Shown here: positions 2,590 to 39,035 of the stretch, piece after piece
How the letters are laid out: each line of letters opens with the position of its first letter
How positions within the stretch are numbered: position 1 is the stretch's first letter
Assembly: GCA_964567895.1 (NCBI GenBank)
Contig: CAZMOX010000003.1
Location: 651 to 64,650 of the forward strand
Length of the DNA stretch: 64,000 bases
Source of the DNA: an uncultured Spirochaetales bacterium
Lineage (GTDB): Bacteria; Spirochaetota; Spirochaetia; JABMQR01
Reading direction: 5' to 3'
Notes under the pieces: generated by a model
Databases searched by the model: none
What the model saw: the letters and a program-made list of their open reading frames with translations, nothing else
What the model was told of the DNA's origin: nothing
Program-made: the position numbers and the translations under genes

Positions 2590-3933
2590 TTAAAGAATGG
2601 CGAAATTTTCGGATACATAGCTCCATTGCCTCTTATAGGAAAGAGAATCCAGCAGTTTTAGATATTCATCCTTAGATAAATTCGGTGTGAAATCCCTAAT
2701 AATATCCTTAGCAGTTTCTGCCTCTCCATAAAGAAGATCAATTATTGTGAGGACATATATTTTTGAGGAAATAATATAGGCCATTTCCGGATCTGCAACC
2801 TTGAAATCTCTCGAATGGGAATGTCCACTGAATGAACCTACATATGGATGTATACCAGGCTTAATCTGTGTCAGGTCTCCCATGTCCGTGGAACTGCCCC
2901 GTGGGCCAACATGCAGCACATTTTCCCCGCCAATAAGTTCTGCAGCATTCTTTGCCCATATGCTTATCAGCTTATTATTATTTTCAACAGGCAGATATCC
3001 CGGGGTATTGATTATCTCCACCTGGGCTCCAACAGCCATTGCTCCCGCCATTAATGCTATATCAACTTTCCTGTTTACCTCTTCTATTATCTCTACAGTC
3101 CGGGCTCTTACATACAGTTCAACTTTTACATCCGAGGGAACATTATTTACACTGTCGCCCCCCTTTGTAATTATAGGATGCACTCGGACAGCATCTTCAT
3201 CTCTGAAAGTTTCTCTCTGTGCATGAATTGCTGACAGAGCAATATTAAAGGCATTCAATGCATTAATACCGTTATACGGTGCACTCCCGGCATGTGCTTC
3301 TTTGCCGATAAAGCGGACACTTTTACCAATAAAACCATTACTTCCGTCTGTTATCAGAACCTTCCGTCCGGGATATTCCGATTGTGCATGCTGCATAATT
3401 ACTATATCGATATCATCAAACTCTCCAAGGTGTATAAGCTCCTGTTTCCCTCCGTAATACTTTATATGTCCCTCTTTTTTAAGAGCCTCTCTGAATTCAA
3501 GATTGATATATTCCTCAGCGGGAACTACAAACAGAACTACTTTTCCTGATAGTTTATCAGCAATTTTCTTTAATCCTATTGCTGCACCTATTAATTGCGC
3601 GACCTGAGCAAAATGGCCACAGGCATGAGCAGCACCGGTTTCTTTATCAGCAAAAGGGTAATCATTGTTAATAATGGCATCAAGTTCGGCAATAATAGCT
3701 ATTACAGGACCTTCCTTTCCTTCTTCCAGTACACCCTTTATACCTGTGACAGCAAGTTCACTTCGATATTTTATTCCAATTTCTTCAAATGCCTCTTTAA
3801 CTTTTTGGGCTGTATTTTTTTCTTTAAAACCCACCTCCGGTTCATGAAGAATTGAGTTGGCAATATCGATAATTTTATCCCGATGTTTATCTATTTCTTT
3901 AAATGCTATTTCTTCCAAAGTTTTTTTATTCAT
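2590..3933 (-). CDS. M20D (Acy1-like/AbgB/PM20D2-type) amidohydrolase
   Basis: Motifs AELDA, HACGH, PAEEY, AHAG and STDMGD; 447 aa. Confidence 0.85.
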   Translation of the reverse strand: MNKKTLEEIAFKEIDKHRDKIIDIANSILHEPEVGFKEKNTAQKVKEAFEEIGIKYRSELAVTGIKGVLEEGKEGPVIAIIAELDAIINNDYPFADKETGAAHACGHFAQVAQLIGAAIGLKKIADKLSGKVVLFVVPAEEYINLEFREALKKEGHIKYYGGKQELIHLGEFDDIDIVIMQHAQSEYPGRKVLITDGSNGFIGKSVRFIGKEAHAGSAPYNGINALNAFNIALSAIHAQRETFRDEDAVRVHPIITKGGDSVNNVPSDVKVELYVRARTVEIIEEVNRKVDIALMAGAMAVGAQVEIINTPGYLPVENNNKLISIWAKNAAELIGGENVLHVGPRGSSTDMGDLTQIKPGIHPYVGSFSGHSHSRDFKVADPEMAYIISSKIYVLTIIDLLYGEAETAKDIIRDFTPNLSKDEYLKLLDSLSYKRQWSYVSENFAIL

Positions 3934-3992
3934 CAGAAAATTATCCTTTTCCCTGGAGATATTTTATATATACAAACTTTTAATGATGCAGC

Positions 3993-5522
3993 CTATTTAT
4001 GAGTTCTGGGTCTTACAGTAACTCCTTCGGATCCAATAAACATATTTGTAAGTGTTCTTTCATCATTTCTCATTCGCCAGGATAGCAATTTTTTTACATA
4101 TTTCAGTATAACTGCCGAATATGAGGGGTCTTCTGCAAGGTTATGCAGTTCATCCGGATCATTTTCTATATCAAACAAAAGATCGGGCATTGCAGCAAAG
4201 TGTATATATTTGTAATGCCTGTCTCTTACCACGTTTAATGAAGATTCTTCAAATCCAATATCCAGTTCTTCATACCTGAAATCTACCTCCCAATATACTT
4301 CATTTCTAAAGTTTTCCGGTTTTTTTCCATACAGGAATGGAACCAGGGAACGGCCGTCGCATTGAACAGGAATTTCTGCACCAAAAATATCTAGAATAGT
4401 TGGAAGAATATCAATGCTTTCGGTAAAAGAGTCTATATGTATTCCCTTCTGCATTTTCCCTTCCATGTCAGGTGTGCGGATAATTAGAGGTACATGAAAA
4501 GTCTGATCAAAATAGGGCGCTTGTCCAATGAAATGGTGGTCCCCAAGTTGTGTTCCATGATCACTTGTAAAAATAATTACTGTATTTTCATATTCACCGG
4601 TTTCTTTAAGAAGTGAAATTATTTTTCCAATATTATCATCTATTTCTGTCATGAGTCCGTAATATGTAGCGCAAAGCTGTTTTAAAGATTTATCATCTCT
4701 TGGGTAAATATCTTTTGAGTAAAATCCTCTGTTTGTTGTATTATCAAGCTTATAAGCAAGAAATGGATGTTGTTTTGCTTCGTTTTCCAGTGTTGCTGCC
4801 CTCTTAAAAGATGTTATATCATCCGGATTGTAAAGTTTGTTGTATGGTTCCGGTGCAAGATATGGTCTGTGTGGTTTGAGATAGCTTAAATGAAGGAACC
4901 ATGGTTTATCAACTGGTCTGCGAAGAAATTTTTCAGCATTATATGTTACAAATGCAGTTTCACTCTCCTCTTTTGAATATGGGGGAGGGGAATAGGTTTT
5001 CCCTTTCCCCTCTGCTCCGGGATATCCTTCAACAGCTTTGTAATAAAGATCTGTCGGGTTTTCAGGAACCTGATATCCTTTCTCTTCCAGCCACTGCGCC
5101 CATTCACCGGGGAATTCTTCACTTGACATCGCAAGGCATTTGAATCCGGGAAGAACACCTTCGTATGTTTTAAGAGCCGGATCATTTGGGGAGAGTAAAC
5201 GGGGATCCGGAGTGGTATCGGTATATCCTACCAGAGCAGGATCATACCCCAGCTTTCGGAATTCCAGAGCAATATTGGTATGCCGTGCATCCAGAGGAGT
5301 CCCGTTTTCTACAGATCTGTGGTTCTGCATGTACATCCCGGTATACAGGGATGCCCGGCTTGGACCACATGGGATACACTGCGCAAAGTGGTTTTCGAAG
5401 AAAACACCATCAGCTGCCAGTGCATCAAGATTTGGAGTTTTAACAACAGGATGCCCCTTCAGGGAGAAACATTCACCCCTCCACTGGTCTGTAGTAATTA
5501 ACAATAAATTTTTCTGTTTCAT
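3993..5522 (-). CDS. Phosphonate monoester hydrolase/phosphodiesterase (FGly-dependent, sulfatase superfamily)
   Basis: TDQWR, CGPSRASLYTG, NHRSVENGTPLDARH, GYTDTTPDPR and SDHG follow the rhizobial PMH sequence closely. Confidence 0.85.
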   Translation of the reverse strand: MKQKNLLLITTDQWRGECFSLKGHPVVKTPNLDALAADGVFFENHFAQCIPCGPSRASLYTGMYMQNHRSVENGTPLDARHTNIALEFRKLGYDPALVGYTDTTPDPRLLSPNDPALKTYEGVLPGFKCLAMSSEEFPGEWAQWLEEKGYQVPENPTDLYYKAVEGYPGAEGKGKTYSPPPYSKEESETAFVTYNAEKFLRRPVDKPWFLHLSYLKPHRPYLAPEPYNKLYNPDDITSFKRAATLENEAKQHPFLAYKLDNTTNRGFYSKDIYPRDDKSLKQLCATYYGLMTEIDDNIGKIISLLKETGEYENTVIIFTSDHGTQLGDHHFIGQAPYFDQTFHVPLIIRTPDMEGKMQKGIHIDSFTESIDILPTILDIFGAEIPVQCDGRSLVPFLYGKKPENFRNEVYWEVDFRYEELDIGFEESSLNVVRDRHYKYIHFAAMPDLLFDIENDPDELHNLAEDPSYSAVILKYVKKLLSWRMRNDERTLTNMFIGSEGVTVRPRTHK

Positions 5523-6613
5523 AATTTTGCCAGAATTTTTGTCCGTTTTGTCTGTAAGTATTCAACCTGTTTTTTATTAGTGGATTCCCTTTGTTTAATT
5601 TGAAACTGCAGGGCCCCTTTGAGAGACAGGGATTCTGCATAATGGCAGGAGACAAAATGTTCCGGGAACATCTCCTTAAGGGGAGGCATCTCATTTACAC
5701 ATCGGCTGTCATCAGCAAATTTACATCGGGGGTGAAAAGGACAACCCGTCGGAGGATTAACAGGGCTTGGCTGTTCTCCCTGTACAAAAAGTTTCTGCAT
5801 TGTTATTTCAGGATCATCCGGAGGAATTGCAGACATAAGAGCTTCTGTGTATGGATGCTTCGGTTTATAATAAAGTTCTTCAGTAACAGCCATTTCAACT
5901 ATTCGGCCAAGATACATAACTGCTACCCTGTCACAGGCATAAGCTACCGCACTTAAATCGTGTGCAACAAACAGATAGGTAAGATCCAGTTCATGGCGCA
6001 AGTCTTTCAGGAGGTTTAGTATCTGTGCCTGAATAGAAACATCAAGAGCCGAAACTGCTTCATCACATACTATAAATTCAGGATGCATAATAAGAGCCCG
6101 CGCTATAGCGATTCTTTGTCTCTGCCCCCCGCTGAAGGCATGAGGATAACGTCTGAGCTGGGAAGTTTTAAGTCCGCAAAGAACTGCCATATCTTTAATC
6201 TTTTCGTTAAGCTCATCTCCACTGGCCAACTTGTTTGCCACAAGAGGTTCACCAATAATGTCTCTTACTGTCATTCGCTGATTTAGTGAGGCATAGGGAT
6301 CCTGAAAAATCATCTGCATATTACGCCACTGATGCCGCAGTTCGTTACGTCTTAATTTTGCAATATCTATCTTTTCTTTTCCAGTATTAAATAATACCTC
6401 ACCTCCGGTAGGTTCAGTTAAATGGATAAGGGTTCGTCCAAGAGTTGTTTTACCAGATCCGCTCTCTCCTACCAAGCCTAGATTTTCACCCTTTTTTATG
6501 GTAAAAGATACATTATCAACTGCTTTCAGAAGCTTTGTGTGTTTGCCGAATATGCCGGTTTTACCTACCGGAAAATATTTTTTCAGATCTTTAATTTCAA
6601 CTAGTGTACTCAT
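5519..6613 (-). CDS. Oligopeptide/dipeptide ABC ATPase (OppF/DppF type)
   Basis: Walker A GESGSGKTT, signature FSGGQRQR, CDEAVSALDVS and a C-terminal CPFHPRC. Confidence 0.93.
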   Translation of the reverse strand: MSTLVEIKDLKKYFPVGKTGIFGKHTKLLKAVDNVSFTIKKGENLGLVGESGSGKTTLGRTLIHLTEPTGGEVLFNTGKEKIDIAKLRRNELRHQWRNMQMIFQDPYASLNQRMTVRDIIGEPLVANKLASGDELNEKIKDMAVLCGLKTSQLRRYPHAFSGGQRQRIAIARALIMHPEFIVCDEAVSALDVSIQAQILNLLKDLRHELDLTYLFVAHDLSAVAYACDRVAVMYLGRIVEMAVTEELYYKPKHPYTEALMSAIPPDDPEITMQKLFVQGEQPSPVNPPTGCPFHPRCKFADDSRCVNEMPPLKEMFPEHFVSCHYAESLSLKGALQFQIKQRESTNKKQVEYLQTKRTKILAKL

Positions 6614-7629
6614 TAATATTTCTCCCCTTTTTTATACAGATGACATGCAACCTGCTGATCTTCTGAAATTTCTATAAGATCAGGAAAAGAGTCATTACAA
6701 ATGCCTTCCATAAAATAATCACATCTGTCATGAAATGCACATCCTTTAGGTCTGCTGAACAGAGTCGGAACACTTCCACGTATAGGTTCCAGTCTTTTAC
6801 GATCTTCAAGATCACCAAGACGTGGAATTGCATCCAGTAATTTCATTGTGTAGGGATGTTTCGGATGGTTGAAAATTTCTTTAACAGGTCCTTTTTCAAC
6901 AATGCTGCCCATGTACATGATAGCAACATTATCCGCAACCTGTCCGACTACACCAAGATCATGGGAAATAAAGATAATTGAAGTTCCAAACTCCTCTTTT
7001 ACATTATTCATAAGGTCAAGGATCTGAGCCTGTATTGTTACATCCAGAGCTGTAGTAGGTTCGTCCGCGATTAGAAGACGCGGATTACACGAAAGAGCTT
7101 TGGCTATCATAGCTCTCTGCCGCATCCCCCCCGAAAACTCGCCAGGAAAACGGTCAACAGCTTTTTCCGGGTCTGCAAGTCCCACCTTTCGCAGAAGATC
7201 AATAGTAGTAGTTCTGGCCTCTTCTTTTGTATTTTTTTTATGCTGCTGTATTACCTCAATAATCTGATGTCCTATAGTATAAAGAGGTGAAAAAGAGCTC
7301 ATAGGTTCCTGGAATATCATCGAGGCCATTCCACCCCGAATTTCCTGGATTTCCTTTCCTCTTGGATTAAGTTTGGTAATATCAACAGGTTCATCCCCAT
7401 TGGTTCCATAAAAGAGGATTTCTCCCTCAACAATTTTCAGTTCTTTAGCAAGCAGCCGGAGTAAAGACAGAGATGTAACACTCTTACCACATCCGCTTTC
7501 TCCCACAAGGGCCAGCACTTTTCCAGCTTCAAGGTTAAAATCCAGACCACAGACAATAGGAATCAATGCCTTGTCAAGGTGCCATGAAATTTGCAGTTTT
7601 TTTACCTGCATTAAATATTTATTCTCCAT
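6613..7629 (-). CDS. Oligopeptide/dipeptide ABC ATPase (OppD/DppD type); start refined to MENKY at 7629
   Basis: GESGCGKS, FSGGMRQR and ADEPTTALDVT. Confidence 0.92.
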   Translation of the reverse strand: MENKYLMQVKKLQISWHLDKALIPIVCGLDFNLEAGKVLALVGESGCGKSVTSLSLLRLLAKELKIVEGEILFYGTNGDEPVDITKLNPRGKEIQEIRGGMASMIFQEPMSSFSPLYTIGHQIIEVIQQHKKNTKEEARTTTIDLLRKVGLADPEKAVDRFPGEFSGGMRQRAMIAKALSCNPRLLIADEPTTALDVTIQAQILDLMNNVKEEFGTSIIFISHDLGVVGQVADNVAIMYMGSIVEKGPVKEIFNHPKHPYTMKLLDAIPRLGDLEDRKRLEPIRGSVPTLFSRPKGCAFHDRCDYFMEGICNDSFPDLIEISEDQQVACHLYKKGEKY

Positions 7630-7642
7630 TCTAAGTAGTCTC

Positions 7643-8767
7643 CTATTTTGAAAAGGGATCTGCTGCGTCCCGTAAGCCATCACCCAGAAAATTAAAGGCA
7701 AGTACTGATATAACAACAAACAGGGCAGTTATAAGCAGCCATGGTATTTGCGACAGAGTATGAATATTCTGTGCCGAGTAAAGAAGAACCCCCCAACTGA
7801 CAATAGGCTCCCGAAGACCCAAACCAAGGAAACTTAAAGCAGTTTCGGCCAGTATTATATATGGGAACGAGATTGTCAGATCCACTATGATATAACTCAT
7901 AAAAGAGGGAAGCATATGATTAACTATAATTCTTCTATCTGTACATCCTGCCAGTTTTGCGGAAAGAATAAAGTCTTCTTCCCTCATAGAGAGAAGTTTA
8001 CTTCGAACACGTCGACCAAGGTTGGTCCATCCTACTGACGCAAGAATTATTGTTACAGCAACATAGACCTTTAAAGCAGACCATTCCCTAGGTAGAGCTG
8101 CTGCAAGAGCCAGCCATAGTGGAAGAGTTGGAATAGACCGGAGGAATTCCATCATACGCATAATAATTTCGTCGACTATACCGCCGAAATACCCGGCAAT
8201 ACCTCCTATAATCAGTCCAATTAAAAATACAAAAGATACCCCGATAGCTCCAACAGAAAGAGAGATTCTTGTGGCAAACATCAGTCTTGAAAAAATATCT
8301 CTTCCAAGCTGATCTGTTCCGAAAATATTTATCATCCCCTCTTTGACCCCGAACAGATGCAGATCCATTTCGAACAACCCTAAAACCTTATAGGGTTCTC
8401 CCTTTATAAAAATAGAGATTGGAATAATTCTTGATGTATCCGGTATAGCGCGCAATTTTAAAGTTTCAGGATCACGTTTATTATCCCACCCATAAATAAA
8501 AGCCTGGAAGTGAAATTTTCCTTCTGAATCGATGTGACGGATTTTCATAGGAGGTGACTGCAGGTAACTTGTATTACGATTGCCAGATGAGTAGGGAGCT
8601 ATAAATTCAGCAAAAATCCCTATAAATATAAAAAGAAGAAGTATAATACCGGCCACGATGGCCATTTTGTTTTTTTTAAACTGCCACCACATCAACTGCC
8701 AGTGAGTAGCAAGATCTCTTCTATTTACTACTGTATTGGTAACATCAGTATTATTTTTATCTTTCAT
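7643..8767 (-). CDS. Peptide ABC permease (OppC type)
   Basis: FGTDQLGRD, EAA-like loop REEDFILSAKLAG and LGDGLRDAADP. Confidence 0.92.
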   Translation of the reverse strand: MKDKNNTDVTNTVVNRRDLATHWQLMWWQFKKNKMAIVAGIILLLFIFIGIFAEFIAPYSSGNRNTSYLQSPPMKIRHIDSEGKFHFQAFIYGWDNKRDPETLKLRAIPDTSRIIPISIFIKGEPYKVLGLFEMDLHLFGVKEGMINIFGTDQLGRDIFSRLMFATRISLSVGAIGVSFVFLIGLIIGGIAGYFGGIVDEIIMRMMEFLRSIPTLPLWLALAAALPREWSALKVYVAVTIILASVGWTNLGRRVRSKLLSMREEDFILSAKLAGCTDRRIIVNHMLPSFMSYIIVDLTISFPYIILAETALSFLGLGLREPIVSWGVLLYSAQNIHTLSQIPWLLITALFVVISVLAFNFLGDGLRDAADPFSK

Positions 8768-9762
8768 TTTACACCCGCCTTTCCCATCCGTAGGCGCGGA
8801 TCAAGGATCATAAGAAGGATATCCGATATAAAAGTCCCTATTATAACAAGACTGCACATGATAAGTATCAAAGCGGCTGACAGATACACGTCCTGATTTA
8901 ACAGTGCGTTTATATACAAGGGACCAAAAGTCGGCAGGGATAAAACCATACCAATTATTGGAGCTCCGGAAACTATTTTGCTTAGTTCCCAACCCAGAGT
9001 TGAAGCTATGGGATTGAGTGCCATACGAACCGGGTACCTCATAAGCAGTTTGAATTCAGGAATACCCCCTGACCGTGCAGATGTAACGTACATTTTATTC
9101 AGTTCATCAAGAAGGGTGGCACGCATGGTACGAAGCTGAAATGCAGTACCTGCCATCCCAAGGACAACAACCGGTACCCAGAGATGGGAAAACAGATCCA
9201 TTAATTTTGCAAAACTCCAGGGAGCATTCTGAAACTCCAGGGAAAATAATCCCCCGACACTCACTCCAAACCATTTTTGTCCCAGAAACATAAGAATCAA
9301 TGCAAGTAGAAACCCCGGGATTGCAAGACCCAGATATCCAATAACAGTTGCCACATTATCTCCTATAGAATACTGCCGGACAGCAGAGTAGATACCAATA
9401 ATAATCGCTATAACATATGTAAAAATAAGGGTTGAAAAAGCGAGAACAAGAGTCATTGGTAAGCTCTCCCCAAGTACATCTTTTACCGGCCTGTGGTATT
9501 CCCAGGAAAACCCCATATCACCCTTAAAAAGATCACCTATCCATATTGCGTATTGCTGGTAGACTGGCCTGTCAAGACCAAGTCTGCTGCGCATTGCATC
9601 CAGTTCATCCTGGGTAACAACAACTCCTCCCTGAGTCTTTTTCCCTGCATAGGAATCAACAAAGTCTCCAGGAGGAAGCTGGATGAGTATAAAGGCGACA
9701 ATAGATAATAAAAACATGGTAACTAATGTTGTACCAAGACGGCGTGCAAATAACTCAAGCAT
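8764..9762 (-). CDS. Peptide ABC permease (OppB type)
   Basis: LPPGD, LGLDRP, GDMGFSW and a C-terminal LDPR. Confidence 0.92.
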   Translation of the reverse strand: MLELFARRLGTTLVTMFLLSIVAFILIQLPPGDFVDSYAGKKTQGGVVVTQDELDAMRSRLGLDRPVYQQYAIWIGDLFKGDMGFSWEYHRPVKDVLGESLPMTLVLAFSTLIFTYVIAIIIGIYSAVRQYSIGDNVATVIGYLGLAIPGFLLALILMFLGQKWFGVSVGGLFSLEFQNAPWSFAKLMDLFSHLWVPVVVLGMAGTAFQLRTMRATLLDELNKMYVTSARSGGIPEFKLLMRYPVRMALNPIASTLGWELSKIVSGAPIIGMVLSLPTFGPLYINALLNQDVYLSAALILIMCSLVIIGTFISDILLMILDPRLRMGKAGVK

Positions 9763-9807
9763 TATTACTACCCCTTTTTAATAAAATATTAACTGATTTG
9801 AAAAAAC

Positions 9808-9835
9808 GAACCCGGACAAGCTTTTGTCCGGGTTC
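9808..9835 (-). terminator. Intrinsic terminator or stabilising hairpin after the SBP gene
   Basis: 12-bp stem GAACCCGGACAA/TTGTCCGGGTTC, followed by a T-run on the minus strand. Confidence 0.75.
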
Positions 9836-9862
9836 AGAATTACTTAAGAAAAACCGGTTTAT

Positions 9863-11884
9863 CTATTTAATAAACCACTGATCAGCCCGGTAGGGATAAG
9901 AATAAGCAAAGAAAGTACTGTTAATTGTCCATTCCGGTGCATTCCCAAGTCTGTCATGTACTACAGTTATCAATGGTATTTCACCAAGAGTACCAATAAC
10001 AGACAGATTATCCTTATTGATCTTTATAATTTCTTTTCCAAGCTCCATATATCTTGCTGTTCCTGGAACAAGGGTAACCCATTCGTCTCCTATTTCCCAA
10101 AGATGTAATACCCATGCTGGCGGTTTTTCACCTGATGCGCCATTACTGGTTTTCCAGTCCATCCAGGGCAGACCCATTATAGGCCATGCTGCAGCGTATG
10201 GAGGCATAAACAAAGAAGGACTTGAAATCATATTTGGTTCAAAAGGTGCAAACCATTCGCTTGTAATATCCAGGGTATTGGATTTTTGTTTATCTCTGGT
10301 AAGCTGAGTATTTACCTCTTTCAGCAGTACTTTTACACCAACATTTCCCCAGTATTCAGAGATAAGAGCCGGAAAATCCGGTGTTCCCACATACTGAATA
10401 GTATATTCCCACAGAACTGTAAGCTCTTTTCCATCAGAACGCAGTCTGACTCCATTAGAACCCATTTTCAGTCCCATTTCATCCAGCAGTTTATTTGCCT
10501 CTGCAGGATCATAATCAGCCATAAATTCTCTGTCCTTATCTGTAACATAGGGTACATTCAAAGGCATTGCCTGCTGGGGAGTTCCAAGACCCAGAAATAG
10601 TGCCTCGTTAAGTTCATCACGGTTTATTGCCAGGGACATAGCATATCTAAAGCGAACATCACTATAGATTTCTCTTAAAGCAGGATCTTCAGCTGTCTGG
10701 TTAAATATCATAGGAGGACCAACCTGTCCTGCAGGAAGCTGAAGCTTATAGTTCCCTTTTTTCTCATTTTCTTTTAATATTGTAAAATCGGTTAAGGCCA
10801 TGCTCTGAGACTTTTGATCAACCTTACCATTCATAATCTCAAGAGGCCATAATTGCTTTTCAAGAAATCTTTCATAATGATAATCAACATAAGGAAGCTG
10901 GTTACCTGCTGTATCTACCTTAAAGTAATATGGGTTAGCAATAAAAAGACGTTGTTGTATTGTAGGTACTTCACTAAGATAATGACTCTCAAGGGTTGGG
11001 ACCTTAACTCCCTCAGGGCCTGCAACTACAGCATCTTTCCATTTATTCCAGTAAGTGCCAAACTGCCGTACCCAATTATCATATCCGGCTGCAATGGCTT
11101 CTTTATCGGCATTTGGATTATATTTAATATGATACTGTTTTAGAAAATGTTTTGGGGCAAATGCATCAAAAGTAGATCCGTTTCCTCCCAGATAATAGAG
11201 CAAACCAGGGAACGCATTTTCAAATTTAATTTTTACAGTTACATCATTAATTTTTTCTATACTTGGAACTGCTGCACTCCATGGAGATGGAATAACTTTA
11301 TGGATCTCTTTATTAAGGAGGATATCATTTACATAAAAAACCATATCATCAGCATTAAAGGGTTCTCCATCGGACCACTTGTGTCCTTTCCTCAATACAA
11401 ATGTTATTTCAGTAAAGTCATCATTCCATTCCCATGATTTTGCAACATTCGGTACAATGGTACTTAGATCATCACTGAATCTAACCAGGTTAGCCTGGCG
11501 CCACGCCATTACTTCGGTAGTACCTGACTCATAAGAGATACACATACCTCTAAGCTGTCCACCGTATTGCCCAATTTCTTTATAGGGCAGAACAACAAGT
11601 GGTTCTTCCGGCAGACGCTTGTCTACAGACTGAAGTGCACCACTACTCTCTTTAGCAGCAAATAATGGATTGCCGGTAAAAGTAAGTTCCTTGCCTGTCT
11701 GCTTTTCATAATCGGCCAATTCAAGCTGCTGAGGGAATTCAGTTGTTATCCCCATAGCATCTGCTACAGTTGCTGCAACAACAGATCCACCTGAACTTGT
11801 TTCGGCGGCGTCTTGCTGTCCGCCTGAAAACACACTGAATGCAATAAACAGCAATAGCAGGGCGACAATTAGTTTCTTTTTCAT
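9863..11884 (-). CDS. Family-5 ABC solute-binding protein
   Basis: Signal peptide ending VFSGGQQD. Motifs [45 protein letters not shown] and [12 protein letters not shown]. Confidence 0.92.
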
Positions 11885-11983: not shown

Positions 11984-12226
11984 GCTTTTTCATAAAGGAA
12001 GCGAAGGAAGTTTTTTGCGGTGTGCCCATCATATCCGGGTTCTTAAAGCATGGAATGTGGGGAATTAAAGAATTTACGGGAGTCTAAGGCGTATCATCTT
12101 GGGGATAACATTTACCGATTCTACCAAACGAGCAAGTACTTGATAGAAAATACATAACGAAAAAAGAAATAATGGGAATTTTGGGTGTAAAACTCAGGAT
12201 GACTAATATTAACATTGTGTTAAAAG

Positions 12227-12258
12227 TTGATAATTGTGTATTATATAGTAAACTAAGT
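12227..12258 (+). promoter_or_regulatory. Putative promoter of the aminomutase operon
   Basis: TTGATA-N16-TAAACT(AAGT), the same 10-mer as the divergent promoter. Confidence 0.45.
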
Positions 12259-12332
12259 ACAGTATATTGAACTAACTATAAATATTTGCTATAGATTAAA
12301 TAGGCGGAGATTACATTACGGAGGGAATAAAA

Positions 12333-13913
12333 ATGAGTAATACTAAAATGGAGCATAGAGAGCTTGATTCTTTTACCAAGGAACTTTTTGACGAACTGTT
12401 TGCATCGGTTACTGCAGGTCCCGGAGTTTTCCGAGGAAAAATCGATGAAATGCAAAACAATCTGAACGAGATGAAGCATACTAGGCTTACTCAGCCTATC
12501 CTTGATTTCTTTATACAACTCCTTGAGTTACGCCGGGAACAGGACATCCTTCCCACTGACCTGGGGTTGAACTATGAAGATCTCCTTGTCCTGGCTAAAC
12601 GTCATGAGGAGATCGATGAACATGGAGTTACCTTGGGCGGCCGGATAAACCGCGCACTTCCTATTGTTCAGGCGGCCAACAAACGCGTGGAAGACTACCT
12701 CCATGAAAAAGATGCCGAAGCACCAAGTGGTATTGAGCTATGGGAGAGGATTCAGGAAAACAAGAAGCGGATCATGAAAGAGCTTAAAATGAGCGAAGAA
12801 GAATGGAATTCCTATAAAGGACAGCTCAAATACGCCATCAATTCTGTTGACACTCTTTCAAGAGTTCTGGACCTTCCTCCTTCTGTAATTAAGGATGTTC
12901 TGAGAGTTACCGAATCCTACCGCATGCGCCTGACTCCTTATTATGCAAGTCTAATCCAGCCGGGTAAAATCAATGATCCTGTTCTTATACAGAGTGTGCC
13001 TACAGGTGAAATGGTTGACAATGTAGGTGAAGAGATTCCTCCTGTAGCAGCAGACCATTCACCGGCGAGGCTGATTGATCAGTTTTATCCCAGGGTTGTA
13101 TCGGTTAAGTCTACAAACATGTGTGCCATGTACTGTACCCATTGTCTCAGAATTGCCCATATTGGGGGAAAGGACAGGATTTATCATAAAGAGGCATACC
13201 GGGAGGCTCTTGACTATATAAGAAAGAACCCTTTAATTCGTGATGTTCTGGTAACCGGGGGAGACGCCTTTGTTCTGCCCAACGATATGCTCAGGTTTCT
13301 TCTCGATGAGCTTGACTCAATAGATCATATTACTGTAAAACGCCTTGGTACCCGTATCCCTGTCACAGCACCCATGAGGATAGATGATGAACTTCTCGAT
13401 ATACTTAGTAAGAGCAATGATAAAAAACCGATTCGTGTAGTCACACAGATAAATACAGCACAGGAAATTACTCCTGTCAGCAGAGAGGCTTTTAGGAAAC
13501 TTTCATCAGTATCAATGACAGTCATGAATCAGGCTGTACTCCTGAAAGGGATCAATGATACCCGTGTAAAGATGTGGAAGCTATGCGAGACCATTCATGA
13601 GGCTTACGTCCGTCCATATTATGTTTTCAACTGTTCCTACAGAAATGCTCAATTTTCACATCTGCGTGTTCCCGTTGAGATCGGCAGAGATATTATAGAA
13701 AGCATGTACGGGAACATATCCGGTGATGCAATACCACGTTTTATCTGTACGGCAGGGGGCAAAGTACCTATGTACAGGGACAATGTTATCGGTAAAAAAG
13801 AAAATGCAGTGGTTTTGAGAAAACCATGGTCCGGGGAGGAGGTTGATTATCCTGACGCAGATCCTGAAATATACAGTAAAACAGATTTTGCTTTTGCAAA
13901 GTATAAGGACTGA
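12333..13913 (+). CDS. KamA-family radical-SAM/PLP amino-acid 2,3-aminomutase of unknown substrate
   Basis: CAMYCTHC cluster motif followed by LR, RDVLVTGGD, RLGTR, NQAVLLKGIND, RPYYVF and GGKVP (PLP lysine). It has an N-terminal extension of about 100 aa. Confidence 0.88.
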   Translation: MSNTKMEHRELDSFTKELFDELFASVTAGPGVFRGKIDEMQNNLNEMKHTRLTQPILDFFIQLLELRREQDILPTDLGLNYEDLLVLAKRHEEIDEHGVTLGGRINRALPIVQAANKRVEDYLHEKDAEAPSGIELWERIQENKKRIMKELKMSEEEWNSYKGQLKYAINSVDTLSRVLDLPPSVIKDVLRVTESYRMRLTPYYASLIQPGKINDPVLIQSVPTGEMVDNVGEEIPPVAADHSPARLIDQFYPRVVSVKSTNMCAMYCTHCLRIAHIGGKDRIYHKEAYREALDYIRKNPLIRDVLVTGGDAFVLPNDMLRFLLDELDSIDHITVKRLGTRIPVTAPMRIDDELLDILSKSNDKKPIRVVTQINTAQEITPVSREAFRKLSSVSMTVMNQAVLLKGINDTRVKMWKLCETIHEAYVRPYYVFNCSYRNAQFSHLRVPVEIGRDIIESMYGNISGDAIPRFICTAGGKVPMYRDNVIGKKENAVVLRKPWSGEEVDYPDADPEIYSKTDFAFAKYKD

Positions 13914-13915
13914 AT

Positions 13916-15097
13916 ATGGAAACCACTCCCGTAAAATATCTTGAGGAACGGCATGATGAGATGCTTAAACTCCTGAAGGATCTTGTTTTAATTCAAAGCG
14001 GTACTCACAATAAACCCGGTGTTAACCGGGTTTGTAATGCTGTAGTAAAAGCAGTTGAGGACCTTCCTGTCAGGATAACACGCCTCGAACATGAGCATTG
14101 GGGAGATACTCTGATCCTGTCAGGCAGTTCGGCAGGTGATTCCGGTAACATTCTGCTGGTTGGCCATATGGATACAGTATTCCCTGAGGATACGGATTTT
14201 AACTGGTATCGTGAAGATGAAAAAAATGCCTACGGGCCGGGTGTTATAGATATGAAGGGTGGTATTGTTTCGATCATTTACGCCCTTAAAGCGCTTGATT
14301 CCTGTAATATGCTTTCCAAAATACCGATAAGAGTAATCTTCAATTCAGATGAAGAAATCGGTTCTCCGGTATCCCGGGAGATTATTGCCTCAGAGGCAAA
14401 GAAAAGTGCTATGTCTCTGGTTACTGAGTGCTGTGGTATGAACGGGGAAGTGGTCACGGGTCGAAAGGGGCGTCTGGGTCTGGAGATGCAGGTTCGGGGG
14501 AAGGCCGGCCACGCAGCTAACTTAACAGAAGAAAAATCCAGCGCTGTATTGGCTCTTGCTTATAAAATTATTAAGATAGAATCTTTAAACAACACTTTCC
14601 CTGAACTGACTGTCAATGTCGGCCTCATAGAGGGTGGTACCGGTCCAAACAGCATTGCTGAAACTGCCATGGCTGCTATCGACATTCGCTTTAGTAGTGA
14701 AAAGACGCTTAGTAACTTCATGATCAGCCTTGAAAAGATCAATAATCGCATTGATGTGGCCGGTACAACGAGTCGTATTGTTAAGGTAGCTGATCGTCCT
14801 GCAATGGTGACAACAGAACAAAACAGAGAACTGTTTTCCATTGCCGCCGAAGCGGGGGAAAGGCTTGGAATCCCTGTAGTTGAGGAATTTCGTTCAGGAG
14901 GTTCTGACGCAAATATTATAGCTGCGGCTGGTACTCCTGTAATTGATGGACTGGGTCCTATAGGCAGATATGATCACAGCGACCGGGAATATATGATTAA
15001 GGAAAGCCTTCTTGACCGGACAAAACTTCTCGTTCTGTTGATAGAATTAGGTCATCAGCGTCTATTATCAGGAAAACTTTTTAAGCAGGTTATTTAA
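13916..15097 (+). CDS. M20 metallopeptidase, carboxypeptidase-G2-like
   Basis: GHMDTVF, GPGVIDMKGG, DEEIGS, GRKG, GGSDAN and DGLGP...HS.REY. Confidence 0.88.
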   Translation: METTPVKYLEERHDEMLKLLKDLVLIQSGTHNKPGVNRVCNAVVKAVEDLPVRITRLEHEHWGDTLILSGSSAGDSGNILLVGHMDTVFPEDTDFNWYREDEKNAYGPGVIDMKGGIVSIIYALKALDSCNMLSKIPIRVIFNSDEEIGSPVSREIIASEAKKSAMSLVTECCGMNGEVVTGRKGRLGLEMQVRGKAGHAANLTEEKSSAVLALAYKIIKIESLNNTFPELTVNVGLIEGGTGPNSIAETAMAAIDIRFSSEKTLSNFMISLEKINNRIDVAGTTSRIVKVADRPAMVTTEQNRELFSIAAEAGERLGIPVVEEFRSGGSDANIIAAAGTPVIDGLGPIGRYDHSDREYMIKESLLDRTKLLVLLIELGHQRLLSGKLFKQVI

Positions 15098-15119
15098 ATA
15101 GTTATCAGGAGAGGTTCTT

Positions 15120-16721
15120 ATGGATATTTCAGCTATTGAAAGCAAATTCCGCTCTACACCGGATATGAAAAGTTCATCTGCAGAAGAGGGTATGGTTGCA
15201 ACGGCATTTCCTCATGCGACCAGGGCCGGGGTGGAAATCCTGCGAAGGGGCGGAAATGCTGTTGATGCAGCCTGTGCTTCGGCATTTGCAATCGGTGTTT
15301 GTGAACCCCAGGCAAGCGGCATAGGCGGCGAATCCAACGCTATCCTAAATATGGACGGCATGACCATAGCTCTCGACGGATCAAGCCGCGCTCCTGGGCT
15401 TGTTGATATCAACACGGTAGATGAGGAATCCCTAAGTACTGGTTACAAGGGGACTACAGTTCCCAGTACTGTTGCCGTCTTAGGACATCTCCATAGACGT
15501 TTTGGCCGGCTGAAATGGAATGAAATTCTGGAACCGGCGATTAATATTGCCAGAGAGGGATTTGAAATTACTCAATTTCAGCATGATCTTCAGATACAGG
15601 AACTATCCCTGTTTAAGAAGGTACCTTCGTTATCCGGTGCAGGTTATTACCTGAAAGATGGTTTAAAACCCTTTGAAACAGGGGAGTTATTTACTCAACC
15701 GGATCTTGTATTAATTCTGCAGGATATTGCAGACTTTGGTCCGGAGTACTTCTATACAGGAAAACCCGCAAGTATCATTGACGAAGATATGCGTGCAAAT
15801 GGTGGATTTCTACGATCTGATGATTTGGGTCGAATCCCCTGGCCTGTTGAGCGCACTCCCATTACGACTAAGTACCGAGGACTAAAAATTGCAACTCTGC
15901 CCCCATCTTCTGGTGGAAGAATGCTGCTCCATACACTGGGAGCCCTTGATCGTTGTCCACCTTCTTTTATTGCCGGACAGACTCCGGAATCATATTCACT
16001 ACTGGCCGGAATATTCAAATCGGCATTACATCTAAACGAAGAGAATATTCCCCACCCCGATTATTACTCCCCTGAAAATGATTTCATGCTGTCTGGAGAA
16101 CCTTCAGATATAAATATTAAAAGTATGATGGAAAATTTTTTTCCTGATGCCAGTGGAGAAACCACGCATCTGTCAGTAATGGACTCTCAGGGTAATTCTG
16201 TGGGTATTACACAGTCAATAAATCATCTTTATGGATGCAAAGCAGCAGCTGAAGGTCTCGGGTTTCTTTATAATAGTTATCTTTCTGATATGAACCGGGA
16301 CGATCCGGAACATCCCCACTACTTCAGACCCAATGGTCTTTCCTATTCTTCAGTTGCGCCTGCAATCATTTTTTACAAAGATTCTCCATGGATGGTTCTT
16401 GGAAGCCCCGGGAGTCAACGGATTTTTACTGCCCTCAGCCAGTTTCTTATCAATGTAGTAGATCGGAATATGACCATATCTGAAGCAATGGAAGAGCCGA
16501 GGATGCATTACTCCATAAACAACCTTATAAGTATTGAAGCAGACCGTTTCCATCCATCTGTTCTATCCCGTTTAAAAGAAGAAGGGTATGAGATCGATAG
16601 ACGGGGATCCTTAAGTTTCTATTTTGGTTCGATTCAGACTGTTCTCAAAAAGAAATCAGGAGGCGGAGGGTTTCAGGGAATCGCCGATGTCAGGAGGGAC
16701 GGAACGGCTGGAGGAATATAG
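15120..16721 (+). CDS. ggt: Gamma-glutamyltransferase family Ntn hydrolase (no signal peptide)
   Basis: GGNAVDAA, EPQASGIGG, autocatalytic ETTHLSVMD, SS motif, LGSPG and DVRRDG. Confidence 0.9.
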   Translation: MDISAIESKFRSTPDMKSSSAEEGMVATAFPHATRAGVEILRRGGNAVDAACASAFAIGVCEPQASGIGGESNAILNMDGMTIALDGSSRAPGLVDINTVDEESLSTGYKGTTVPSTVAVLGHLHRRFGRLKWNEILEPAINIAREGFEITQFQHDLQIQELSLFKKVPSLSGAGYYLKDGLKPFETGELFTQPDLVLILQDIADFGPEYFYTGKPASIIDEDMRANGGFLRSDDLGRIPWPVERTPITTKYRGLKIATLPPSSGGRMLLHTLGALDRCPPSFIAGQTPESYSLLAGIFKSALHLNEENIPHPDYYSPENDFMLSGEPSDINIKSMMENFFPDASGETTHLSVMDSQGNSVGITQSINHLYGCKAAAEGLGFLYNSYLSDMNRDDPEHPHYFRPNGLSYSSVAPAIIFYKDSPWMVLGSPGSQRIFTALSQFLINVVDRNMTISEAMEEPRMHYSINNLISIEADRFHPSVLSRLKEEGYEIDRRGSLSFYFGSIQTVLKKKSGGGGFQGIADVRRDGTAGGI

Positions 16722-16895: not shown

Positions 16896-17381
16896 TTATC
16901 TGAGCGGAGTTGTTTGAGATCTGCATATTTTGAAATACTTGGTATTTGAAGACAGAATGATAAATGTTTCAGTGTATGATATACCGCCAATTTTCTCTAA
17001 TTCATTCTTAAAAAGAGCATCATTCAATGATTCGAGTGAATCCACCATTAATTCAAAGAAAAGATCAAAACGGCCGCTTGCATTCCAGACACTTGTTACC
17101 CAAGAAATTTTCTCAATTTTTTTAATTATTTCTTCATGATTCCGCTCTATTAAATTTACACCCACAATTGCTGAGATTCTTCTTGGCAGGGCAAATGGAT
17201 TAACTCTGGCTTCTAGTTTTAATATGTCCTGTTTAATCAATCGTTCAACCCTGTTTTTAATTGTACCTTCAGAAACTTCCAGTTTTCCCGCAATAATTTT
17301 AAACTGTCTTCTGGCATCTTCCTGCAGTTCGAGTATTATTTTTCTGTCAAGATTGTCTATTTCATATTTTTCATTGGTCAT
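16896..17381 (-). CDS. Lrp/AsnC-family regulator
   Basis: IDNLDRKIILELQEDAR...VSEGTIKNRVERL HTH plus a C-terminal RAM domain (SGRFDL). Confidence 0.9.
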   Translation of the reverse strand: MTNEKYEIDNLDRKIILELQEDARRQFKIIAGKLEVSEGTIKNRVERLIKQDILKLEARVNPFALPRRISAIVGVNLIERNHEEIIKKIEKISWVTSVWNASGRFDLFFELMVDSLESLNDALFKNELEKIGGISYTETFIILSSNTKYFKICRSQTTPLR

Positions 17382-17609
17382 TTGATTTTTTAAAGCTCCA
17401 ATAATGTATTTATACAATTACACTTCCTGTCTGTCAATGCAGTTGTTAGCAATAGAAAAAATTGAAAAATTATGGTTTAGATACAATAATATCTAAAAAT
17501 ATTCTATCTAAAATATAAAAATATAAAAATATTGATATAGATATAATTCTAGTATATAATCTGAAAAACAATGAGTAAATCTGCATGCAGGAAATTCAGG
17601 AGGAAATAA

Positions 17610-27590: not shown

Positions 27591-28031
27591 TTAAAGACTC
27601 TTTTCCAATGGATAATAGCTTTTTATAGGGGGAAATCGCTTAAAATCATAATCTGCAGTATGTACTATTGCTTTATGAGAAAGTGCCAAAGCTGCTATTT
27701 GTGCATCAGTTACTAAATTTCCACCCGCTGAACCAGCCTGGATAAGCAGATCCTGTACATCAGAATAATAACTGCTGCCGGGTTCGAGCACTTGCGTAAC
27801 AGATCGTGAAATCCAGCTATTGATGTGAGAAAATACTTCGGGAATCGACATTGGTTTTGAGAATACTCTATAACTGGTAGCTATCCTCGTAAAAGCAAAT
27901 ATCACTGGATTTACTAAACCAACCGGCTCGTTACCGGATAAACAGGTTTCCCACCACTTTTTTGCCTGGTTATGATACTTAGATGAACTGTTATAGGCAT
28001 AAAGGAGCAAGTTAGCATCCGGAATAATCAT
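27591..28031 (-). CDS. vapC: VapC PIN-domain toxin
   Basis: IIPDANLLLYA, E/W helix, NLVTDAQIAALA and TADYDF.RF. Confidence 0.88.
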   Translation of the reverse strand: MIIPDANLLLYAYNSSSKYHNQAKKWWETCLSGNEPVGLVNPVIFAFTRIATSYRVFSKPMSIPEVFSHINSWISRSVTQVLEPGSSYYSDVQDLLIQAGSAGGNLVTDAQIAALALSHKAIVHTADYDFKRFPPIKSYYPLEKSL

Positions 28032-28300
28032 GAGAAGTCCTTTTTATGCTCTGCTGCTTCCAGATAAGCATCAATTTCCATATCATCAGCAAGCTTATTG
28101 TAACTTCCTGCATCGATTCCTACCCGTAGATCCAAATTGCGTGCTTCTACTTTGAAGGATGGTTCCTGCTTTGCATATCCAGTGGAAAGTGCTTTTCTCA
28201 GGGATTGATTGATAATTTCCTTAAAACTTTTACGACTTTTCTGCATGGTATCCAGAATTAGCTGTTCAACATCAGGGTCAATAGTAATTGTTGTTCTCAT
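28028..28300 (-). CDS. vapB: VapB-type ribbon-helix-helix antitoxin
   Basis: MRTTITIDPDV...SFKEIINQSLR; 4-bp overlap with vapC. Confidence 0.82.
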   Translation of the reverse strand: MRTTITIDPDVEQLILDTMQKSRKSFKEIINQSLRKALSTGYAKQEPSFKVEARNLDLRVGIDAGSYNKLADDMEIDAYLEAAEHKKDFS

Positions 28301-38382: not shown

Positions 38383-38640
38383 ATGGCTATATACATAAAA
38401 AACACAAAAGCTGAATCTCTGGCTCGTGAGGTTGCTGACCGCTATGGGGTATCTCTTACTGAGGCGGTGATATCGGCATTGGAAAGTAAACTCCAGGAAC
38501 CTTATTTCGAGGTTAAGACGAGTAATCGGCTTGCAGATGAGCTGCTGGATATCGGGCAGCGTTGTTCCCGGCTTCCCGATTTGGATATGCATAGTGCTAA
38601 TACAATTCTTGGGTATGATGATATGGGAGTCCCGACATGA
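38383..38640 (+). CDS. vapB: VapB-family antitoxin
   Basis: MAIYIKN..AE.LAREVA...G.SLTEAVI.AL, ending LGYDD.G.P. Confidence 0.85.
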   Translation: MAIYIKNTKAESLAREVADRYGVSLTEAVISALESKLQEPYFEVKTSNRLADELLDIGQRCSRLPDLDMHSANTILGYDDMGVPT

Positions 38641-39035
38641 TTGTGGATACCTCAGCAGTCCTGGCTATTCTTTTTCAGGAACCGGAAGCAGCATGGTTTG
38701 CAGAGCAACTTGGAAAATCCGGGAGAAAATTCATGAGTCCGGTAAATACTTTGGAAGCAGATATTGTTCTCCTTGCCCGCAAAGGGGCAGCCGGTCAACG
38801 TGAGTGGGAATTGCTCAGGATGAAAGCCGGGATTGAGATAATTCCCTTTACTGATGCAATGGAGAAAGAGGCGGTGAGGGTCTGGATCAGGTATGGAAAG
38901 GGACGACATAAGGCTGGATTGAATATGGGTGATTGTTGTGCCTATGCACTCGCCGTAGCATCTGGTATGCCTCTACTTTGCAAAGGAAACGATTTTATTC
39001 ATACCGATCTGGAGATACTCAAGGATGAAGGATAA
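38637..39035 (+). CDS. vapC: VapC PIN toxin
   Basis: MIVDTSAVLAIL..EPE, LNMGDCCAYALA and LLCKGNDF..TD. Confidence 0.9.
   Translation: MIVDTSAVLAILFQEPEAAWFAEQLGKSGRKFMSPVNTLEADIVLLARKGAAGQREWELLRMKAGIEIIPFTDAMEKEAVRVWIRYGKGRHKAGLNMGDCCAYALAVASGMPLLCKGNDFIHTDLEILKDEG

Follow-up and report, generated by a model that had tools for sequence, protein, structure and literature searches.

What does a KamA-like radical enzyme do if it has the specificity residues of neither the lysine nor the glutamate enzyme and is encoded together with two hydrolase-like partners? This question is raised by a three-gene operon in a 64,000-nucleotide stretch of DNA from an uncultured Spirochaetales bacterium (contig CAZMOX010000003.1; we call the whole stretch the window), whose first gene encodes a member of the KamA family of radical S-adenosylmethionine (SAM)/pyridoxal phosphate (PLP) 2,3-aminomutases, named KamAL here. 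It is with considerable confidence that we assign KamAL to a new clade of aminomutases that functions as part of an amide ligase/hydrolase module. The KamAL-M20-GGT arrangement of the window is a minority variant of this module, in which a gamma-glutamyltransferase (GGT), usually with a small-peptide ATP-binding cassette (ABC) importer, replaces the ligase. The three open reading frames (ORFs) are co-directional and separated by gaps of 2 bp and 22 bp, and a sequence scan gave no convincing terminator inside the unit; the positions, strand, gaps and motifs quoted in an earlier note on this DNA are all found in the sequence as that note gave them. The genes of the unit are:

12333 to 13913, plus strand: KamAL, a KamA-family radical-SAM/PLP 2,3-aminomutase of a distinct clade (526 aa, intact ORF).
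13916 to 15097, plus strand: a cytoplasmic M20 dinuclear metallohydrolase resembling carboxypeptidase G2 (CPG2), directly 3' of KamAL (393 aa, intact ORF).
15120 to 16721, plus strand: a non-canonical, cytoplasmic N-terminal nucleophile (Ntn) hydrolase of the GGT family (533 aa, intact ORF), with the nucleophile Thr348 at nucleotides 16161-16163.

Is KamAL one of the known aminomutases? It exceeds the cut-off of the generic KamA model TIGR00238 (245.6 versus 199.2 bits) and passes none of the equivalog models, of which the glutamate 2,3-aminomutase (Eam) model TIGR04368 scores best (350.5 versus a cut-off of 650), followed by those for lysine 2,3-aminomutase (LAM; TIGR03820, 298.1 versus 525.4), arginine 2,3-aminomutase (233.5 versus 600) and EpmB (174.7 versus 369.3). 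The KamA structure 2A5H is its only significant solved relative by sequence, and also the only match returned by Foldseek (E 7e-26, TM-score 0.74 on the target) for an AlphaFold2 (AF2) model with a predicted local distance difference test score (pLDDT) of 85. A phmmer alignment to 2A5H pairs Ser435 with Asp293, Thr473 with Asp330, Arg273 with Arg134 and Lys477 with the PLP lysine Lys337. The segments that set KamAL apart, or that it shares with its relatives, are the following:

12333 to 12674, plus strand: a family-specific, all-helical N-terminal domain (residues 1 to about 114), delimited by alignment and AF2 secondary structure (H13-H129).
13077 to 13097, plus strand: DQFYPRV (residues 249-255) in place of xxRYPDR, with Phe251 for Arg112, Arg254 for Asp115 and Val255 for Arg116 in LAM numbering.
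13122 to 13151, plus strand: CxxxCxxC (Cys264, Cys268 and Cys271; residues 264-271) followed by Leu-Arg273, the equivalent of LAM Arg134.
13614 to 13646, plus strand: the specificity loop PYYVFNCS435-Y-R437-N (residues 428-438), in which Ser435 replaces LAM Asp293 and the Eam lysine.
13740 to 13769, plus strand: FICT473A-GGK477VP (FICTA at residues 470-474), in which Thr473 replaces LAM Asp330 and the Eam asparagine.

We take Asp293 and Asp330 of LAM to bind the epsilon-ammonium group of lysine, and the Lys/Asn pair of Eam presumably binds the free gamma-carboxylate of glutamate. As controls, two AblA-type lysine enzymes read Asp and Asp at the two specificity columns, and P0127, which passes the Eam model (693 versus 650 bits), reads Lys and Asn, so that the contrast drawn by the earlier note between these pairs and the Ser/Thr of KamAL agrees with the alignment to all of them. 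The Ser/Thr pair is present in 70 of 71 family sequences and, among 130 KamA-family representatives, is confined to the KamAL clade, Asp/Asp occurring 91 times and Lys/Asn seven times. Because the signature is both fixed in 70/71 sequences and unique to the clade, we do not regard it as a product of chance, and the uncharacterised 2,3-aminomutase lineage with a fixed non-lysine, non-glutamate signature that had been postulated is thereby borne out. The label 'lysine 2,3-aminomutase' that JGI and UniRef attach to some homologues would make KamAL an ordinary LAM, or else an EpmB-type enzyme modifying elongation factor P (EF-P). Such an identity is hardly credible: Asp293 and Asp330 are both missing in all members, the scores stay under the AblA (298/525) and EpmB (175/369) cut-offs, no efp, epmA, ablB or kamD/E gene lies nearby and the partner genes differ. 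The absence of efp, epmA, ablB and lysine-fermentation genes, also claimed before, holds for the annotated part of the window (about 2.3-64 kb; two ORFs of 396 and 175 aa in the first 2.3 kb are not covered by the annotation).

The chemistry itself is most likely that of an aminomutase, because the residues associated with SAM, PLP and the cluster in LAM are otherwise invariant: the clade keeps CxxxCxxC, Arg273, Lys477, Arg337 (LAM Arg198), Tyr429/430 (Tyr287/288), Gln400, Glu378 and the TGGD motif. The changes that set the clade apart from all other branches go beyond the two specificity residues. The clade reads [FI]YP[RQ]V where nearly all other printed KamA-family representatives read RYPDR, and this rebuilding is a larger change than a specificity swap; the Arg-Arg that follows the carboxylate-binding arginine in LAM and Eam is Ile-Ala in KamAL and Ile/Leu-Ala across the clade. 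A one-residue insertion in the specificity loop brings in Arg437 (the clade motif after the insertion being S-[YF]-R-[ND]), which is invariant even in the outliers P0121 and P0122 at 48-55% identity, and three residues are deleted before the PLP lysine Lys477. The three-residue deletion, the Arg437 insertion, the loss of RYPDR and the 114-aa helical domain together suggest a pocket remodelled towards a larger ligand.

The N-terminal region resembles Eam in part only. Residues 115-152 align solely with the Eam N-terminus (the TIGR04368 profile from position 13), which accords with the Eam likeness and the N-terminal extension (of about 100 aa) that the note had described, but the likeness does not reach residues 1 to about 114, for which neither Eam nor LAM has a counterpart and for which the Foldseek search gave no separate fold match. 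With Eam as the closest equivalog model, KamAL thus appears to be a distinct clade that arose on the Eam side of the KamA family. Its close homologues (62-90% identity) are found in Desulfobacterota, Deferribacterota, Aquificota, SAR324 and Spirochaetota, many carriers belonging to marine, saline or thermophilic lineages, and at least 80 of 185,579 species-level genomes scanned encode a member. Cultured carriers include Deferribacter thermophilus and D. abyssi, Desulfopila aestuarii DSM 18488, Desulfoprunum benzoelyticum DSM 28570 and, with a type B locus (defined below), Dethiosulfatarculus sandiegensis. A search of 1.84 billion 50%-identity representatives returned three full-length relatives at 655, 496 and 390 bits and then, after a sharp break, true Eam at 255 bits. 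In databases the homologues go by 'KamA family radical SAM protein' or, erroneously, by 'lysine 2,3-aminomutase', and by no other name. One relative of 512 aa, P0125 (42% identity), carries the N-terminal domain of the clade without CxxxCxxC (ARSRPVYC) or the PLP lysine motif (QGAVP); the sequence is that of a degenerate paralogue without catalytic activity, or else an artefact of sequencing.

With which genes does this clade work? We fetched 80 genome loci, called and clustered their ORFs and checked the result by tblastn; the ATP-grasp gene was counted over 74 loci with enough flank, M20 over 69 assessable loci, and TAXI and GntR/FCD genes over 39 loci flanked by 6 kb or more on either side. 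An ATP-grasp protein of 470 aa (PF02655) is encoded directly upstream of KamAL on the same strand in 65 of the 74 loci, frequently with start/stop overlaps, so that the gene set given in the note had missed a family-wide partner that is absent from the window. The M20 gene lies directly downstream in 51/69 loci across phyla, and the conserved M20 linkage that the note had predicted is therefore real. In 13 of the 39 loci a GntR/FCD regulator gene precedes the ligase gene, and in 19 of them a TAXI-type TRAP binding protein is encoded within 6 kb of KamAL, in some cases in the same operon (for example, L057). The outlier P0121 (55% identity) shows the same TAXI/TRAP, GntR, ATP-grasp, KamAL layout. 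We call this ligase form type A.

The TAXI proteins offer a view of what is imported. Apart from one further paralogue at 23%, their identity is 43-67% to VcGluP, a glutamate-specific TAXI protein of Vibrio cholerae whose structure and biochemistry have been characterised and in which mutation of Tyr45 and Gln93 lowers affinity 213- and 990-fold, respectively (PMC11574862). Tyr45, Gln93, Ser75, His123 and Glu125 of VcGluP are kept in 21 of 22 neighbouring TAXI proteins, which could bind glutamate itself or a closely related isomer or amide. The same proteins (e.g. L038:12629-13624 and L057:10781-11785) have Gln for Asp157 and Thr for Met201 in 20/22 cases each, at positions that sit near the alpha-carboxyl/alpha-amino end of the ligand.

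A second ligase is present in a few type A loci: a glutamine synthetase (GS)-family protein of 436 aa (GlnA model, 363/429 bits) is encoded directly after KamAL in L054, L058 and L078. It is paired with a short KamA paralogue of 357 aa (L054:1965-3998, L058:4176-6629, L078:9721-12122 and L073:3676-6244); in L073 the pair lies directly upstream of the ATP-grasp gene, with the GS-family gene two genes upstream of KamAL. An RxYxDR-type motif is retained in the short paralogue, where Glu occupies the position of Asp293 and Ala that of Asp330; the protein scores best against the arginine 2,3-aminomutase model (364/600) and may represent a second uncharacterised aminomutase specificity.

What takes the place of the ligase in the window? 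All loci without the ATP-grasp gene carry a GGT gene instead (type B: the window, L001-L004, L028, L089/L090 and L098), most of them in the order KamAL-M20-GGT, and L036 has a rearranged form of the unit; the three-gene unit is thus not confined to this genome, as the note had required for its claim to survive, and it recurs in Spirochaetota and Desulfobacterota. A locus scan with the GGT as single query sequence returned only three loci, all of them already in the set. Several type B loci carry a second, divergent GGT paralogue and a sigma-54 activator gene, and in L003, L004, L036 and L098 an Opp/Dpp-type ABC importer lies within the unit. The 513-aa binding protein of this importer (L003, L004, L036) has an uncharacterised protein as its best match, and its solved relatives include the opine binder AgaA as well as YliB and HbpA, both of which we take to bind glutathione. 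The locus L036, from a Desulfosarcina metagenome-assembled genome (MAG), retains directly before KamAL a 56-aa C-terminal remnant of the ATP-grasp gene (L036:7813-7980, 64% identical to residues 415-470), and a GGT gene and a five-gene ABC importer block occupy the place of the missing remainder. L036 looks like a frozen intermediate of the replacement of the ligase by GGT, and since the remnant is physical evidence, we conclude that the GGT form derives from the ligase form. A neighbour-joining KamAL tree places L036 among ligase-type loci and far from the main GGT-type clade, which indicates that the replacement happened at least twice. KamAL proteins of type A and type B differ consistently at two positions only, both conservative, and for this reason KamAL is predicted to catalyse the same reaction in both contexts.

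These observations also bear on the idea that KamAL, M20 and GGT are adjacent by chance or mere synteny. The wide occurrence of the GGT-like subfamily, mostly without KamAL, would fit such an idea, yet the close spacing of the genes (2 and 22 bp) without an intervening terminator, the KamAL-M20 adjacency in 51/69 loci across phyla and the recurrence of the triplet in Spirochaetota and Desulfobacterota, where it arose at least twice, leave it a negligible probability. Active-site residues, model scores and conserved partners together effectively rule out a lysine 2,3-aminomutase, an EF-P-modifying enzyme and a fortuitous gene neighbourhood.

The two hydrolases retain much of their catalytic apparatus. 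The M20 protein of the window comprises the catalytic and dimerisation domains PF01546 and PF07687 and has no signal peptide; its best solved relative is CPG2 (E 3e-34), with a weak match to 3DLJ, and His84, Asp112, Glu146/147, Glu171 and His354 align to the CPG2 ligands, such that the five metal positions and the general-base glutamate are kept. The GGT-like protein matches PF01019 (G_glu_transpept, 7e-99), shows no hydrophobic signal at its N-terminus and keeps its nucleophile Thr348 (Thr391 of the Escherichia coli enzyme) in the motif GE/TTH, along with the equivalents of Thr391/Thr392, Asn411, Asp433 and Ser462/463. In the wider signal-less subfamily to which it belongs (the window protein and 118 homologues, P0391-P0510), most members have Glu for Asn411 and no Asp433, and the substrate of that subfamily is probably not a canonical gamma-glutamyl compound.

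Relatives of the two hydrolases also meet outside the KamAL loci. At L095:4818-9387 and L096:3803-8415, which belong to two unrelated lineages and include a Burkholderiales MAG, a three-gene operon with start/stop overlaps encodes a Ddl-like ATP-grasp::M20 fusion of about 730 aa, a GGT-like protein and a protein of the N-formylglutamate amidohydrolase (FGase) family. The M20 half of the fusion in L095 and L096/L097 is homologous to the window M20 (25% identity, E 2e-29). Because the trio recurs in L095 and L096/L097, we regard ATP-grasp, M20 and GGT-like proteins as a functional set that recurs independently of the aminomutase. Full-text literature yielded no characterisation of the L095/L096 ATP-grasp::M20-GGT-like-FGase operon.

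What, then, is the substrate? Since the partners comprise a TAXI importer, an ATP-grasp and a GS-type ligase, a GGT and a CPG2-like hydrolase, and since Eam is the nearest relative, we favour on balance a substrate with a glutamate skeleton and a system concerned with amide-bond chemistry at a carboxyl group, one that probably makes or recycles a beta-glutamyl compound. We tentatively propose that KamAL converts gamma-Glu-X to beta-Glu-X by an amino shift on an amide-linked glutamyl head group. The 5'-deoxyadenosyl radical would abstract the C3 hydrogen of the PLP-aldimine-bound alpha-amino acid, the nitrogen would migrate via an azacyclopropylcarbinyl radical and the hydrogen would then be returned, completing a 1,2-amino shift; the substrate would be gamma-Glu-X, with X being NH2, an amine or an amino acid, and the reaction would run to beta-Glu-X and back. 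In type A loci, glutamate would enter through the neighbouring TAXI-TRAP importer, the upstream ATP-grasp ligase would make a gamma-amide of it, KamAL would move the amine of the head group from C2 to C3 and the downstream CPG2-like M20 would cleave or recycle the conjugate. In type B loci, the cytoplasmic GGT-family enzyme would make or break gamma-amides of this kind with no need of ATP, and in related type B loci a small-peptide, opine or glutathione-type ABC importer would bring in the material; the window operon would be a ligase-free version that takes pre-formed gamma- or beta-glutamyl compounds and serves their salvage or catabolism. The order of the steps and the direction of flux are those that we infer from the gene content. 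The proposal would account for the loss of the Eam Lys/Asn pair, for the enlarged and rebuilt pocket, for the coupling of ligase and mutase and for the exchange of the ligase for GGT with an unchanged mutase. It would also make KamAL the first 2,3-aminomutase to act on a conjugated amino acid (glutamine or the head of a gamma-glutamyl amide or peptide), a distinction that we regard as somewhat doubtful.

Several observations weigh against a gamma-glutamyl conjugate as the substrate. Within KamAL, the guanidinium group of Arg437, flanked by the hydroxyls of Ser435 and Thr473, would form a plausible site for a carboxylate, and the loss of the near-universal family residues Arg112 and Arg116 goes without explanation and might affect cofactor binding. 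The outlier P0122 (48% identity) bears the Ser/Thr signature and stands alone without partner genes, and 15 of the 69 loci have no M20 gene in the fetched flank. The partners give limited guidance on specificity: the M20 lies below every named equivalog (PRK07338, 254.9 versus 357; PRK06133, 216.3 versus 349), so that model scores do not pin down its exact role. The ATP-grasp family has about 775 homologues, none of them named, and for a model with a pLDDT of 88 its fold matches are generic (PurK, biotin carboxylase, PurT and RizA, TM-score 0.55-0.6); its NCBIfam matches are weak and limited to the ATP-binding core (BesA 3e-8, LdmS 2e-3). The GGT-like protein falls below TIGR00066 (295.6 versus 357.85) and has Ser for Arg114, Tyr for Gln430, Ser for Thr409 and Ser for Gly484, changes shared by the nine type B GGTs without exception and by 115-118 of 118 close homologues, those at Arg114 and Gln430 in 117-118 of the 118 subfamily members; its gamma-glutamyl specificity is assumed, and the subfamily is very large, taxonomically broad and mostly unlinked to KamAL. 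Finally, no peptide-type importer adjoins the window operon. With Arg114 and Gln430 missing from one protein and all named cut-offs unreached by the other, the 'two glutamyl-conjugate hydrolases' of the earlier note are unproven.

Some of the same evidence would fit a divergent glutamate 2,3-aminomutase that converts free L-glutamate to beta-glutamate, with Arg437, Ser435 and Thr473 holding the gamma-carboxylate. Type A loci would then be producers, in which the ATP-grasp enzyme ligates beta-glutamate to a partner to give a solute-like product, much as in the AblA/AblB pathway, and M20 turns the product over; type B loci would be consumers, in which GGT and M20 hydrolyse conjugates of imported or endogenous origin and a reversible mutase links beta-glutamate and glutamate. 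Eam is the closest equivalog model, the TAXI importers next to KamAL retain the glutamate-determining residues of VcGluP, Arg437 is invariant down to P0121 and P0122, and the solitary P0122 and the 15 loci without M20 would suit a free amino acid. Many carriers, moreover, are marine, saline or thermophilic, and beta-glutamate and beta-glutamine are established compatible solutes (PMC1224877). An unchanged substrate, however, gives no evident reason for losing Lys/Asn, RYPDR and the RRR cluster or for gaining an N-terminal domain, KamAL reaches only about half of the Eam cut-off, and a reversal of direction between types A and B leaves the constant presence of M20 unexplained. We consider free glutamate an unlikely substrate, yet the leading alternative to a conjugate.

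Could the substrate instead be neutral? The earlier note had argued for a neutral, glutamate-derived side chain. The glutamate part of this claim is favoured by the TAXI residues and the GS-like neighbours, but neutrality is not established because the specificity loop carries the invariant Arg437 and Arg254 replaces Asp115. The same residues bear on a broader version in which KamAL acts on a small or neutral free amino acid (L-alanine to beta-alanine, or glutamine, serine or methionine) and ATP-grasp and M20 form a dipeptide synthetase/dipeptidase pair like carnosine synthase and carnosinase or LdmS and HmrA. The replacement of charged residues by Ser/Thr would suit such a substrate, an operon of an L-amino acid ligase (LAL)-type ATP-grasp enzyme and an M20 has a precedent in hmrA/ldmS (PMC9486568), and M20 enzymes include beta-alanyl dipeptidases, to which the weak 3DLJ match could be related. 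We nevertheless find this reading quite improbable, given that the TAXI residues and the GS-like and GGT-like neighbours point to glutamate, that invariant or near-invariant Arg437 and Arg254 would be odd for a purely apolar substrate and that the nearest relatives are Eam enzymes rather than engineered LAM variants for small substrates.

How the operon of the window may be controlled, and what surrounds it, was read from the flanking sequence. The features concerned are:

12320 to 12325, plus strand: Shine-Dalgarno sequence GGAGGG of the KamAL gene, 7 nt ahead of the ATG at 12333, read from the sequence.
12227 to 12254, plus strand: promoter-like TTGATA-16 nt-TAAACT, found by consensus scan, within the upstream block at 12220 to 12300.
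16896 to 17417, minus strand: AsnC/Lrp-type regulator gene convergent with the operon, assigned by Pfam and NCBIfam; a candidate regulator only.
2590 to 11884, minus strand: divergent ABC importer operon encoding a 673-aa family-5 binding protein, two permeases, two ATPases, a sulfatase and a second M20 protein (447 aa).

The upstream block of about 80 bp (window:12220-12300, L001:3870-3950 and L002:7890-7970, all three being spirochaete loci) has the common pattern ...TAAT.GTG.AT.A.ATA.TAAACT...AGTATATTGAACT...ATATTTGCTATAGAT, in which AGTATATTGAACT and ATATTTGCTATAGAT are AT-rich repeats, and is kept in L002 despite different upstream genes. It may be an operator of the aminomutase operon and a candidate site for the adjacent AsnC-type regulator, whose gene also adjoins the operon in L002 (91% identity) and in other contigs that carry the same regulator gene. 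No Rfam riboswitch was found upstream of the operon in the window or in eight related loci.

The divergent importer operon was considered as the peptide importer of the system and rejected. The closest solved relatives of its 673-aa binding protein are not established peptide binders (5IPW, 4e-80, an uncharacterised putative oligopeptide-binding protein; SPH1118, 7VER, 4.5e-67, presumably a pectin-oligosaccharide binder; and, ranking third, the alpha-galactoside binder 6EPY, 7e-23), a sulfatase gene lies alongside, and the operon is missing upstream of the L002 locus, which is 88% identical. It is probably not part of the aminomutase system and may take up sulfated or acidic oligosaccharides.

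On the other side, the regulator gene is followed by a gene for an MttB-superfamily methyltransferase (window:17610-19055; 481 aa, uninterrupted, with no in-frame amber codon; TIGR02369, 381 bits versus a cut-off of 525), probably a non-pyrrolysine quaternary-amine methyltransferase. In L002 the gene likewise sits next to the operon (89% identity), and there the mttB coding sequence matches Rfam PYLIS_3 (39.3 bits), most likely via mttB homology; in the window, genes for a helix-turn-helix (HTH)-cupin regulator, kbl and an EamA transporter come after it. Besides the MttB-family gene and kbl, the annotated window holds sugar-utilisation genes and toxin-antitoxin (TA) modules. TA-type modules and a Fic gene (window:36622-37871, 38383-39035, 27591-28300 and 43341-44381), including HipA/HipB-like and PIN/PSK-type pairs, are scattered among GH32, GH30 and cellulase-family sugar-utilisation operons, in what seems to be a variable part of the contig.

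How does KamAL compare with known systems, and what would follow from it? The note's statement that no described pathway has this gene set stands, since full-text literature gave no description of the KamAL clade or of an aminomutase combined with these partners. To our knowledge, the radical-SAM/PLP 2,3-aminomutases that have been established act on lysine, glutamate and arginine only. A fourth specificity, fixed in a clade, would extend the chemistry of the family, the more so if the substrate is a conjugate. If our proposal holds, sulfate reducers, Deferribacteres and spirochaetes would possess a new class of beta-glutamyl metabolites, fed by either of two interchangeable routes, one through an ATP-grasp ligase and the other through a peptide importer and a GGT-type transferase, the module being completed by a dedicated M20. 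Functions would likewise follow for the generically labelled 470-aa ATP-grasp protein with its roughly 775 homologues, for the CPG2-like M20 and for a subfamily of cytoplasmic 'GGT family proteins'. In marine anaerobes, the system could bring to light a beta-amino-acid metabolite that is new, or a pathway that synthesises or salvages a compatible solute; how beta-glutamate and beta-glutamine are made outside Firmicutes is as yet little understood (PMC1224877).

The closest counterpart is Eam, the glutamate 2,3-aminomutase of Clostridioides difficile that Ruzicka and Frey reportedly described in 2007. Both proteins belong to the radical-SAM/PLP KamA family, share an N-terminal segment (residues 115-152 of KamAL) and lack the LAM zinc-site Cys268; KamAL is 36-37% identical to the Eam P0127, from which it differs in Ser/Thr for Lys/Asn, DQFYPRV for RRYPDR and CLRIA for CQRRR, and in the Arg437 insertion, the three-residue deletion before the PLP lysine, the helical domain of about 114 aa and its partner genes. 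With KamA (2A5H) and AblA it has in common the fold, the cluster cysteine triad and equivalents of Arg134, Lys337, Arg198 and Tyr287/288, but it lacks Asp293 and Asp330, has other residues in place of Arg112, Asp115 and Arg116, and is not encoded near lysine-fermentation genes or ablB.

At the level of the module, the nearest parallel to the ATP-grasp-KamAL core of type A is AblA/AblB, which makes N-epsilon-acetyl-beta-lysine in methanogens and likewise couples an aminomutase to a derivatising enzyme in a minimal unit; beta-amino acids serve as inert solutes (PMC1224877). Type A has an ATP-grasp ligase rather than a GNAT enzyme, a substrate other than lysine and usually a hydrolase attached, and a solute role is putative. 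The hmrA/ldmS operon of Staphylococcus aureus similarly joins a ligase to an M20 hydrolase, without an aminomutase (PMC9486568). The likeness of BesA and LdmS to the KamAL-linked ATP-grasp protein is confined to the ATP-binding core and permits no inference about substrate; BesA performs gamma-glutamyl ligation in the Bes pathway. The L095 and L096/L097 operons also unite ATP-grasp, M20 and GGT-like enzymes, the last of the subfamily found in the window (with Arg114 replaced by Ser and Gln430 by Tyr), and differ in having no aminomutase, another ATP-grasp subfamily and the additional FGase-family gene. Set against these systems, KamAL likely extends the known aminomutase chemistry rather than defining a new category.

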